From: a virus
Virus record (IMG/VR): IMGVR_UViG_3300022542_000430
Direction: 5' to 3' (one strand)
DNA length: 45,329 nucleotides
Part shown: piece after piece, positions 31,515-32,157 of the stretch
How the letters are laid out: each line of letters opens with the position of its first letter
Numbering within the stretch: position 1 is the first letter of the stretch
Program-made: the position numbers and the translations under genes
The notes under the pieces: generated by a model
Database searches by the model: none
What the model was told of the DNA's origin: nothing
The model's input: the letters and a program-made list of their open reading frames with translations, nothing else

Positions 31515-31750
31515 GTAAACCATTAAAGGATTCATATAGGCTGAATGAAGCTTTGGAGCTAATGAAAAGCCCTGAGTGGGAAACTATCGCAGTTGGTGAG
31601 GATTTTAATGAGCCAATAGAAATGACTGAGGAAGAAAGCGAAGAGTTTATTACAAGGTTTACAGAAATGAGTAAGGAGATGGAAGAAAAGGTAAACGAAA
31701 TAGACAAAGCTTTTTTAGATTTCACGGGCGTAGAGGATAAAAAAAAATAG
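31511..31750 (+). CDS. hypothetical acidic protein
   Basis: 79-aa ORF. Confidence 0.5.
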   Translation: MSKPLKDSYRLNEALELMKSPEWETIAVGEDFNEPIEMTEEESEEFITRFTEMSKEMEEKVNEIDKAFLDFTGVEDKKK

Positions 31751-31824
31751 TTCGATAAGCTCAAGTCTAGTAAGAGCTGCCAGTTCGGTCTGGTGGATTG
31801 TGGGGGCAGAACCTACTCGGACAG
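31750..31824 (+). other. tRNA-shaped element without an acceptor stem (decayed tRNA-like)
   Basis: Stems GCTC/GAGC (31759-62/31774-77), GCCAG/CTGGT (31779-83/31790-94) and GTGGG/CCTAC (31800-04/31812-16) sit at tRNA spacing. There is no TTC loop and no acceptor pairing. Confidence 0.25.
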
Positions 31825-31836
31825 CAATAAATACAA

Positions 31837-31922
31837 GGAAGGTGAAGCAGCTACATGGAGTAGCGACTAGTTTTGAAAACTAGGTTTGGTTCGCCAACGG
31901 AGTTCGATTCTTCCTCCTTCCT
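31837..31922 (+). tRNA. class-II tRNA-Ser(UGA)-like element with extra nucleotides between acceptor and D stem
   Basis: Anticodon arm CTAGT-TTTGAAA-ACTAG. Variable arm TTGG-TTCG-CCAA. T loop GTTCGATTC. Acceptor GGAAGG/CCTTCC. D stem GCTA/TAGC is displaced by about 4-5 nt. Confidence 0.5.
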
Positions 31923-31934
31923 CAATTAAGAACT

Positions 31935-32055
31935 AGAAGTAAGGCCGAAGGGTGGAGGCTAACGGAAAAGATTAAAGCGGATCGTTACCGTGATTTTAAG
32001 TATCTAGAAGGCTTAAGTATGAATCAAACAGTCAGTTCGAGTCTGACTACTTCGA
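31935..32055 (+). tRNA. oversized (121 nt) tRNA-like element
   Basis: D arm GCC-GAAGGGTGGA-GGC. T arm GTCAG-TTCGAGT-CTGAC. Acceptor AGAAGTA/TACTTCG. Extra hairpin TAACG..CGTTA. Stem GATTT/GAATC encloses 24 nt carrying TTAAGTAT twice. Confidence 0.35.
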
Positions 32056-32062
32056 GAATAAA

Positions 32063-32157
32063 TGCAAGATAGCTCAGGGGTGGAGCAAACGTAAACTTTG
32101 CGTTAAACGTAAACGGAAAGAGCGTAGGTCATAAGGTTCAAGTCCTTATTCTCGCAC
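32063..32157 (+). tRNA. oversized (95 nt) tRNA-like element
   Basis: TAGCTCAGGGGTGGAGC D arm. T arm TAAGG-TTCAAGT-CCTTA. Acceptor TGCAAGA/TCTCGCA has one mismatch. The central region carries AAACGTAAAC twice and no loop with U33. Confidence 0.35.

Follow-up and report, generated by a model that had tools for sequence, protein, structure and literature searches.

The window analyzed here is the whole of IMG/VR virus record IMGVR_UViG_3300022542_000430, a stretch of 45,329 nucleotides (nt). The contig comes from a tailed phage, looks complete at 45.3 kb, has about 35% G+C, and is densely filled with genes that use the standard bacterial code. Downstream of terL, positions 31750 to 32157 are non-coding and carry four tRNA-sized elements, designated b, a, c, and d in map order, which lie on the same strand and are separated by spacers of 12, 12, and 7 nt. 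We conclude that this region is almost certainly an array of tRNA-derived genes. The elements are listed below; a pair of numbers such as 8/4 gives the base pairs (bp) of the acceptor and T stems.

31750-31824, plus strand: element b, a cloverleaf-shaped RNA (minimum-energy fold, pairs checked)
31837-31922, plus strand: element a, a probable 8/4-type (tRNA-Sec-like) tRNA-Ser with anticodon UGA (body scan, Rfam tRNA-Sec, pair table)
31935-32055, plus strand: element c, a 7/5 tRNA body with two hairpins for an anticodon arm (folds, pair table, body scan)
32063-32157, plus strand: element d, a 7/6 tRNA body with a 37-nt anticodon arm (folds, pair table, body scan)

Canonical tRNA calling returned none of the four elements. 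Across the whole window, ARAGORN at default settings found a tRNA-Cys at 26884 to 26955 alone, and Rfam at gathering score (at least 29 bits for the tRNA model, RF00005) found tRNAs at 26884 and 25779 alone. At an E value of ≤10, the sole Rfam match between 31500 and 32400 was that of element a to the tRNA-Sec model, RF01852; no other Rfam family, including large-RNA and intron families, matched the island. ARAGORN run at thresholds of 60 to 80% with introns allowed did report a, c, and d, with anticodons that were mutually inconsistent. The anomaly is thus real, and the elements are not canonical tRNAs misfolded by hand. A preliminary description of this DNA had proposed four adjacent tRNA-type elements without a standard cloverleaf; ARAGORN, Rfam, and the scan described below bore this out, together with the coordinates and most element features. 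Neither ARAGORN nor Rfam returned the canonical tRNAs of 72 to 90 nt that had been named beforehand as the refuting outcome.

The window was also scanned for tRNA bodies in which the middle region was of free length. Matches had a T arm with the loop TTCRANN, a G53-C61 pair, and a fully paired stem of 4 to 6 bp; an acceptor with no more than one mismatch, its 5′ strand lying 60 to 140 nt upstream and acceptor and T stems together making 12 to 13 bp; and a D arm with GG in its loop. The scan returned the tRNA-Cys, a (8/4), c (7/5), and d (7/6) alone, and nothing on the minus strand. First-order Markov shuffles gave 0.05 matches per window, against the three bodies (a, c, and d) found here inside 320 nt. 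A canonical T arm (UUCRANY loop, G53-C61), a D loop with A14 and G18G19, and acceptor pairing are present in a, c, and d and not in b, while a canonical anticodon arm (5-bp stem, 7-nt loop, U33, purine 37, one base past the D stem) is present in a only.

Anatomy of the four elements

Element a probably is a tRNA-Ser(UGA) of the 8/4 class that could decode, as judged from its sequence and predicted pairing. Its acceptor, GGAAGGUG/CUCCUUCC, has 8 positions, 7 of them paired and one a U·U; the pair G31844-C31914 lengthens the acceptor to 8 bp and leaves a T stem of 4 bp (GGAG/CUUC) with the loop UUCGAUU. The D stem GCUAC/GUAGC has 5 bp, or 6 bp with a C-G pair across a bulged A, and a 5-nt loop, AUGGA. 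The anticodon arm, CUAGU[UUUGAAA]ACUAG with the loop in brackets, carries U33 and A37, the 15-nt variable region forms a 4-bp stem with a UUCG loop (UUGG[UUCG]CCAA), and the discriminator is U31922 (U73). There are extra bases between the acceptor and D stems, and membership in the 8/4 class explains them. The body scan recovered element a solely as 8/4 or 9/4. When 3 nt were removed from the linker between acceptor and D stems, default ARAGORN called it a tRNA-Ser(tga), and a scan of single deletions with ARAGORN gave 26 equivalent solutions, all of them Ser-UGA. The preliminary description had the Ser(UGA) anticodon arm, the variable arm, the T loop, and the extra bases between acceptor and D stem right, as the pair table confirmed; in treating a as non-standard without a class, it had not recognized the fit to the known 8/4 tRNA-Ser (allo-tRNA) class.

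Transfer RNAs with 8/4 and 9/3 acceptor branches were described by Mukai et al. in 2017 (NAR 45:2776, PMC5389517) as sub-threshold matches to the tRNA-Sec model, and 8/4 tRNA-Ser has already been reported in bacteriophages (PMC5389517). Element a has in common with these the 12-bp 8+4 branch, a long D stem with a small loop, the long variable arm, U73, and the resemblance to tRNA-Sec. It differs in having a 5-nt D loop rather than a tetraloop, a bulged A in the D stem, and the acceptor U·U, and it lacks an 8/4 tRNA-His partner. The published 8/4 tRNA-Ser lineages are Clostridia, Proteobacteria, Acidobacteria, and alpha-proteobacterial phages (PMC5389517), whereas the host of element a belongs to the Bacteroidota. 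Bacterial tRNA-Sec (RF01852) likewise has an extended acceptor, a long D stem, and a long variable arm and is the best Rfam model for a (33.4 bits; E = 1.3e-4 over 900 nt and 0.006 over the whole window; no match to the tRNA model was reported). That score lies below the gathering score of 47, however, and tRNA-Sec has the anticodon UCA and a 13-bp (8/5) branch, compared with UGA and 12 bp (8/4) in element a. Among the serine codons of the phage, UCA makes up 21% and UCU, UCA, and UCG together make up 49%; this usage is compatible with a useful tRNA-Ser(UGA) but does not discriminate between readings.

The minimum-energy fold of element b is a four-arm cloverleaf that accounts for 59% of the ensemble at −24.4 kcal/mol. 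An acceptor-like stem of 6 bp (GUUCGA/UCGGAC) closes the fold, and three stems of 5 bp each follow: a D-like one whose loop has 11 nt, a middle one with UUCGGU (6 nt) as its loop, and a T-like one whose loop is GGCAGAA. The same shape, with a closing stem of at least 5 bp, occurred in 7 of 3,946 genomic 75-mers, none of them at −20 kcal/mol or below; among 2,000 shuffles of b, 4 reached it at that energy. ARAGORN remained silent on b even after single deletions. The fold and pair check agreed with the earlier view that b has D-, anticodon-, and T-like stems at tRNA spacing and no TTC loop, and the 6-bp stem contradicts the statement that it lacks acceptor pairing.

Element c is 121 nt long. 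Its acceptor pairs at six of seven positions (A1×G72), its discriminator is A, its D arm is of class II type with 3 bp (GCC-GAAGGGUGGA-GGC), and its T arm is a perfect 5 bp (GUCAG[UUCGAGU]CUGAC). Two hairpins stand in place of the anticodon arm and give the element a five-way junction. Hairpin 1 (31962-31991, 30 nt) has two 4-bp helices separated by a 4×4 internal loop and ends in a 6-nt loop; in hairpin 2 (31992-32025), a 5-nt bulge lies between two 5-bp helices, and the terminal loop has 9 nt. The stem GAUUU/GAAUC encloses 24 nt in which TTAAGTAT occurs twice, and the two copies pair with each other via a CUUAAG palindrome. The length, class II D arm, perfect T arm, extra hairpin, and duplicated word had all been read correctly before.

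Element d is 95 nt long, with an acceptor paired at six of seven positions (A×C), U8-A9, the D arm GCUC[AGGGGUG]GAGC, the variable loop AGGUC, and a 6-bp T stem with the loop UUCAAGU. Its anticodon arm (32089-32125) spans 37 nt and consists of three 4-bp helices with AAACGUA at the tip; AAACGTAAAC occurs twice, 18 nt apart. The length, the canonical D and T arms, and the duplication agree with the preliminary description, which had also stated that no loop in d has U33. That statement does not hold for an alternative hairpin at 32097 to 32113, UUUGC[GUUAAAC]GUAAA, which is UAA anticodon-like and has both U33 and a purine at 37. This hairpin lies outside the minimum-energy fold, costs about 4 kcal/mol more, and is 10 nt too distant from the D arm.

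Elements c and d share an unusual D-loop word, GGGUGGAG. Both retain A14, the D-loop GG, G53-C61, and a UUCRANN T loop; all irregularity lies in the anticodon domain, and as they stand they very probably cannot decode. The segment 32048-32061 (the end of c plus the spacer, UACUUCGAGAAUAA) is 86% complementary to 32146-32159 at the 3′ end of d. Pairing of CGAGAA with UUCUCG would provide d with a different acceptor of 6 perfect bp and a linker of 12 nt before the D arm, and it could also link c and d in an unprocessed transcript.

An accessory cassette downstream of terL

The array forms part of a cassette that directly follows the terL stop codon. Its features and the neighboring genes, including open reading frames (ORFs) named by their length in amino acids (aa), are as follows.

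31348-32169, plus strand: accessory cassette of 822 bp, comprising ORF55, ORF79, and the four tRNA-like genes
31347-31514, plus strand: ORF55, a small basic protein (pI 8.0)
31511-31750, plus strand: ORF79, a 79-aa acidic protein (pI 4.3, net charge −12)
29415-29810: terS
30031-31347, plus strand: terL
32293-32940: 215-aa ORF downstream of the array
33028-33666: head-protein-like ORF
33810-35588: portal gene

A 542-nt gap without credible ORFs between ORF79 and the 215-aa ORF houses all four elements, on the same strand as the genes. The array had been placed between terL and the portal gene; it does lie in that interval, but three ORFs intervene between it and the portal gene. In the nearest relative, locus L011 (73% amino acid identity in the 215-aa protein), blastn and alignment showed positions 779 to 844 to correspond to window 31282-31347 and positions 845 onwards to window 32170 onwards, contiguously. 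Because L011 aligns up to the terL stop codon and resumes at 32170, window 31348-32169 is a clean insertion of 822 bp.

Related loci were traced from seven homologues of the 215-aa protein and 78 portal homologues. Eleven of them span the terL junction: six contigs found via the 215-aa protein, four found via the portal (53 to 60% identity), and the metagenome locus L084. The array is absent from all 11, with no tRNA or Rfam match at the junction, where terL is followed within about 0 to 170 nt by a small ORF or a homologue of the 215-aa protein; in L112, one of the portal-derived loci, terL identity is 73%. Searches of viral contigs with terL and portal returned distant relatives only or none, and those without tRNAs. 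The comparison with homologous islands in related phages that had been proposed as a check therefore found no such island at the 11 junction loci. In two other assemblies of the same phage (L019 and L020), the island is 100% identical. The cassette is carried by this phage alone among the relatives found, and it looks like a recent acquisition.

The two proteins of the cassette gave few clues. Neither ORF55 nor ORF79 has a Pfam or PHROG match, and among 5.8 billion proteins ORF79 matched only itself. Its AlphaFold model is of low confidence (pTM, the predicted template modeling score, 0.39), too weak to serve as a search query. Among phages, small acidic proteins often act as DNA mimics or anti-restriction factors.

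The host is a bacterium of the Bacteroidota, since the phage encodes a peptidoglycan amidase (an N-acetylmuramoyl-l-alanine amidase, Amidase_3 lysin) and DnaB and its portal relatives infect Bacteroidota: among sequenced phages, 74 of 75 portal matches are to phages named for Bacteroidota genera. Judged from these sequences, it is most likely a marine member of the Flavobacteriia. The phage also encodes a DnaD-like helicase loader and an ERF recombinase. An archaeal virus with bulge-helix-bulge introns was considered and rejected on the basis of the lysin, DnaB, ERF, and the portal relatives and of the lack of the motif. Stop-codon recoding with suppressor tRNAs was likewise rejected; the ORFs are intact under code 11 (stop codons TAA, 47; TGA, 10; TAG, 9), and element a carries a sense anticodon, for serine.

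A conserved non-decoding tRNA-like gene and shared 3′ trailers

Elsewhere in the window lies an irregular tRNA-like gene whose orthologues could be followed in three related phages. These genes, called 25779-type after the first of them, are listed with the tRNA-Cys of the window and the trailers of elements b and a.

25779-25852, plus strand: 25779-type gene of the window (Rfam tRNA, 36.7 bits, the model expecting 9 nt at a site where the gene has 10; ARAGORN silent)
L075, 3673-3759: orthologue (Rfam tRNA, 47.2 bits), with 25 nt instead of the loop
L111, 3924-3998: orthologue, with a 5-bp stem and a 4-nt tetraloop, GAAU
L084, 3940-4010: orthologue (Rfam, 52.5 bits), with a 6-nt anticodon loop
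26884-26955, plus strand: tRNA-Cys(GCA) (ARAGORN default; Rfam, 48.4 bits)
31825-31831, plus strand: trailer CAAUAAA after element b
31923-31929, plus strand: trailer CAAUUAA after element a

In all four phages the gene lies about 1.5 to 2 kb upstream of a homologue of window 27580-27954, and portal identity to the window is 60% for L075, 53% for L111, and 49% for L084. The four genes, segmented by hand for comparison given their loop indels, have an identical T arm (GUAGG-UUCGARU-CCUAC, four of four) and a canonical D arm, and acceptor positions 5-68 and 6-67 are unpaired in three of the four. Pair 2-71 is A-U in the window and G-C in L075, a compensatory change, and both acceptor mismatches are kept. 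The anticodon loops measure 10 nt in the window (GAAGUAAGUA, on a 4-bp stem), 25 nt in L075, 4 nt in L111, and 6 nt in L084, never 7 nt. ARAGORN missed three of the four genes and reported the L084 copy with an undetermined anticodon. The long arm of the L075 gene (4 bp, an internal loop, 5 to 6 bp, and the Lys-like loop UUUUUAU; z = −2.0) parallels the architecture of element d. A conserved body with a loop of other than 7 nt is the best available argument from sequence for selected non-decoding tRNA shapes in this lineage; it favors that view without proving it.

The 25779 gene of the window adjoins a 395-aa ORF (23511-24698, minus strand) with 47 to 48% identity in L076 and L112. This ORF is placed where an integrase might be expected and has no Pfam or PHROG match, integrase families included; an attP site or integration scar as the origin of the odd anticodon loops accordingly found no support. 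The tRNA-Cys is itself not fully standard, with a class II-like D arm (GCC-GAGCGGUUA-GGU) and an A31×C39 mismatch bordering the anticodon loop.

The motif CAAUWAA directly follows the discriminator in b, a, and the 25779 gene (25853) and in tRNA or tRNA-like genes of L075 (3912), L084 (4011), and L111 (4000). The DNA word CAATWAA has 37 plus-strand copies in the 45 kb, which gives about 0.015 expected at the trailer positions of the window, where 3 were seen; the corresponding positions after element c and the tRNA-Cys read GAAUAAA and CUAUAAA, respectively. These trailers tie b and a to the other tRNA genes of the clade and suggest a common 3′-end signal, and CAAUWAA may be a signal for 3′-end processing or termination.

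Three further loci outside the window were noted. L075 5986-6079, just upstream of terS, is a 94-nt body-scan match (7/6, T loop UUCGAAU) and a weak candidate for an irregular tRNA-like gene; its fold is not a cloverleaf, and Rfam and ARAGORN are silent on it. L110 (uncultured Tenericutes metagenome-assembled genome URLC01000005.1) has at about 2455-2540 a tRNA-like gene with a perfect GAACUAG/CUAGUUC acceptor, a 25779-type T arm, and about 8 extra nt in the anticodon/variable region, which ARAGORN did not call. L084 4097-4177 is an 81-nt tRNA-Ile(GAU) call (Rfam, 35.4 bits) whose variable region carries an extra arm of about 9 nt, an unusual feature in a tRNA of class I.

Origin and possible roles of the array

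The reading that we favor, with a confidence slightly short of even, sees the region as a polycistron of four irregular genes of tRNA origin, in which a decodes and c, d, and probably b are mimics. The array would probably be transcribed together with the late genes, because it points the same way as the packaging operon, with no terminator or promoter in between; Bacteroidetes-type and sigma-70-type promoters did not rise above chance in the island. Host tRNA-processing enzymes could then recognize the acceptor/T minihelix and excise the units, with RNase P cutting the 5′ ends and RNase Z or exonucleases acting at the A/U-rich CAAUWAA trailers. Since no CCA is encoded, the CCA-adding enzyme would be needed to complete the 3′ ends. 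Element a could be charged with serine, its long variable arm and U73 being features linked to recognition by seryl-tRNA synthetase, and UCA would be its codon, with UCU and UCG probably read as well through wobble. Elements c, d, and probably b would keep the tRNA parts that enzymes recognize, with an anticodon domain out of reach of the ribosomal decoding site, and might occupy or titrate tRNA-binding proteins, such as host tRNA-targeting nucleases or modification enzymes. That c, d, and probably b have been retained as such mimics is plausible, if short of probable. A broader proposal, which we consider unlikely as things stand, is that the clade encodes a class of non-decoding tRNA mimics. 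Each would combine an intact acceptor/T/D body, open to processing and binding by host tRNA enzymes, with a rebuilt anticodon domain: a long arm with an anticodon-like loop at its tip, a double hairpin, or a loop of 4, 6, 10, or 25 nt. Such mimics would serve as decoys for, or inhibitors of, host immunity that targets tRNAs or enzymes that modify them; in the present cassette, three of them would be joined by an 8/4 tRNA-Ser and by the small acidic protein. Phage tRNAs are known to counter tRNA-cleaving defense systems (PMC10264068, PMC11555353).

Several observations weigh against the favored reading. Folding energies of the elements did not differ significantly from those of shuffled sequences (z = −0.7 to −1.5); such weak z-scores are also usual for real tRNAs. 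Element a has the U·U mismatch in its acceptor, and element b, without G18G19 and without the UUC (T-psi-C) of the T loop, has none of the loop nucleotides conserved in tRNAs. Pattern scans for relatives of a, c, and d gave canonical tRNA-Ser genes or chance matches only in viral contigs and nothing in metagenome and genome collections, and blastn against 50,697 phage records (E ≤ 10) gave generic T-arm matches only. No homologue of b, c, or d was found in these searches, and these elements are therefore without covariation or conservation evidence. The identity of the island in the three other copies of the same phage is uninformative, and the intact stems could just reflect the young age of the cassette. 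Finally, the five-stem-junction allo-tRNAs described earlier are inactive in translation, and their role is unknown (PMC5389517).

A doubtful but serious alternative is that c, d, and b are young, decaying tRNA pseudogenes that arrived in a cassette from the tRNA cluster of another phage, in which a may still work. Short duplications or insertions in the anticodon arm, with a period of 17 to 18 nt in c and d, would have inactivated the genes, and the remnants would not have been purged. The disrupted regions are precisely where the short direct repeats lie, deleting any one segment fails to bring back a convincing canonical tRNA, a cassette carried by this phage only is probably of recent date, the searches above found no homologue of b, c, or d, and inactive allo-tRNA pseudogenes have been documented (PMC5389517). 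Decay, however, does not readily account for damage that is restricted to the anticodon domain and leaves three stems per element and the conserved tertiary nucleotides intact, or for repeats that form new helices rather than simple insertions. The genome is compact, with few other non-coding stretches, and the 25779-type gene has been kept without a 7-nt anticodon loop in phages with 49 to 60% portal identity, which indicates that non-decoding shapes are retained in the lineage. It is this syntenic gene that makes us lean toward mimics over pseudogenes among the three options offered in the preliminary description. The third, unusual processing, is the least likely: that c and d mature into decoding tRNAs is unlikely because the host is bacterial and neither a splicing motif, an enzyme (about 60 ORFs scanned), nor a convincing single-deletion product was found. 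In its specific form, inserts would be removed from c (31 plus 17 nt) and d (about 18 to 20 nt) to give, for example, tRNA-Leu(UAA), and this we regard as very improbable. Element c without its inserts does measure 73 nt, UAA loops with U33 and R37 can be drawn in c (GAU[UUUAAGU]AUC) and in d (the alternative hairpin), and UUA is the commonest leucine codon of the phage (45%). Bacteria lack bulge-helix-bulge splicing, however, and the motif, two 3-nt bulges 4 bp apart, is not there: d has a 3-nt bulge (AAA) and a 4-bp helix followed by a mere 1-nt bulge on the other strand, and the internal loops of c are 4×4 and 0×5. At 17 to 31 nt the inserts are an order of magnitude below group I introns (about 200 nt or more), and no Rfam intron matched. 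About 60 phage ORFs scanned contained no ligase, endonuclease, or tRNA/RNA-processing enzyme, and single deletions scanned with ARAGORN produced just 3 solutions for c, all of them weak, and 137 for d, among which seven different anticodons were called.

The position of the array raises another, improbable explanation, in which the elements are processing punctuation: cleavage at them by RNase P and RNase Z would divide the terS-terL message from that of the head genes, or they would stabilize message ends, and neither decoding nor mimicry would matter. Mitochondrial transcripts are punctuated by tRNAs in this way. The array does lie exactly between two late-gene blocks on the same strand, without a detected terminator or promoter; the A/U-rich trailers are common to the elements; and the acceptor/T body, all that processing enzymes need, is the part preserved in c and d. 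Yet all relatives do without any element at the terL junction, one unit would suffice where four different ones are present, and the intact serine anticodon arm and variable arm of element a would be superfluous. Least probable, and close to negligible, is a chance resemblance, an unrelated structured RNA, or regulatory DNA such as repeated operator half-sites. The weak energy z-scores are in keeping with such a reading, and the repeats could be protein-binding sites, but three bodies stand side by side where the scan expects 0.05 per window and no other Rfam family matched. DNA operator sites were rejected because the repeat words are not enriched elsewhere in the genome, and a single large structured RNA was rejected because the whole-island fold is no better than shuffles (z = −0.35) and no large-RNA family matched.

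Returning to the array of irregular tRNA-derived genes that we favor, its pattern has precedents: polycistrons of irregular tRNAs and a five-stem-junction allo-tRNA(UAU) have been reported (PMC5389517), as repeated in a 2020 review (PMC7609411). Like the present array, with its four units 7 to 12 nt apart, those polycistrons hold tandem non-canonical tRNAs that include an allo-tRNA-like member, and some members have an extra stem (a five-way junction) or extra loops. The two are likened by description, and the published examples come from soil Acidobacteria and stand next to toxin-antitoxin genes, whereas the array lies in the late region of a marine phage. Its neighbors (terL, ORF55, ORF79, and the head genes) showed no toxin-antitoxin or transposon setting and no Pfam or PHROG toxin-antitoxin match; that neighborhood is an association reported in PMC5389517, not a strict defining feature. 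In the published E-loop tRNAs, the extra structure lies between the acceptor and D stems, while here it replaces the anticodon arm. The array thus resembles known irregular-tRNA polycistrons and differs in setting, a phage late region, and in lesion, a replaced anticodon arm.

Other systems share fewer features. Bacterial YrlA/Y RNAs and viral tRNA-like structures are modules that mimic D, T, and acceptor parts and, although they do not decode, are substrates or partners of tRNA enzymes; YrlA is a circular permutation of the tRNA order and has its two termini in the Ro-binding stem. Neither of these families has an Rfam match in the island. Archaeal intron-containing tRNAs resemble c in their short inserts, which lie within or close to the anticodon arm and downstream of the D arm, and in a remainder of about 73 nt. 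Element c differs in its bacterial host, in lacking a bulge-helix-bulge motif, and in that the single-deletion scan gave no unique product; nor did the phage ORFs scanned include a splicing endonuclease or ligase. Phage tRNA clusters of the T5 type, which supplement codons or escape tRNA-cleaving defenses (PMC10264068, PMC11555353), are, like the array, compact, same-strand, and located in an accessory region, and their changes center on the anticodon loop. They consist of decoding tRNAs with point changes in a 7-nt loop, whereas c and d have long or double hairpins and cannot, on the present folds, decode; such defense-escaping tRNAs would be functional analogues only. Within an incomplete coverage of the literature, we found no paper on phage tRNA-like genes with elongated or doubled anticodon arms.

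All four genes were missed by standard annotation, and irregular tRNA-like genes are thus probably undercounted in phage genomes. Element a, as assigned here, would extend the rare 8/4 tRNA-Ser class to a marine Bacteroidota phage, and c and d together with the 25779-type gene suggest that some phages keep tRNA shapes for a non-decoding purpose. Defense systems that cleave tRNAs are now known to be widespread. Should the decoy role hold, decoy RNAs with the body of a tRNA would represent a new kind of counter-defense; should c, d, and b be tRNA mimics, they would provide a natural example of the tRNA-scaffold principle from RNA engineering. As pseudogenes, they would be an annotation curiosity only.

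Two other genes of the window may be recorded. The ORF at 14165 to 14635 has an Imm-5-like immunity-protein domain (E = 1e-7), and the ORF at 16011 to 16607, in the early/middle region, encodes an HNH/NUMOD4 homing endonuclease.

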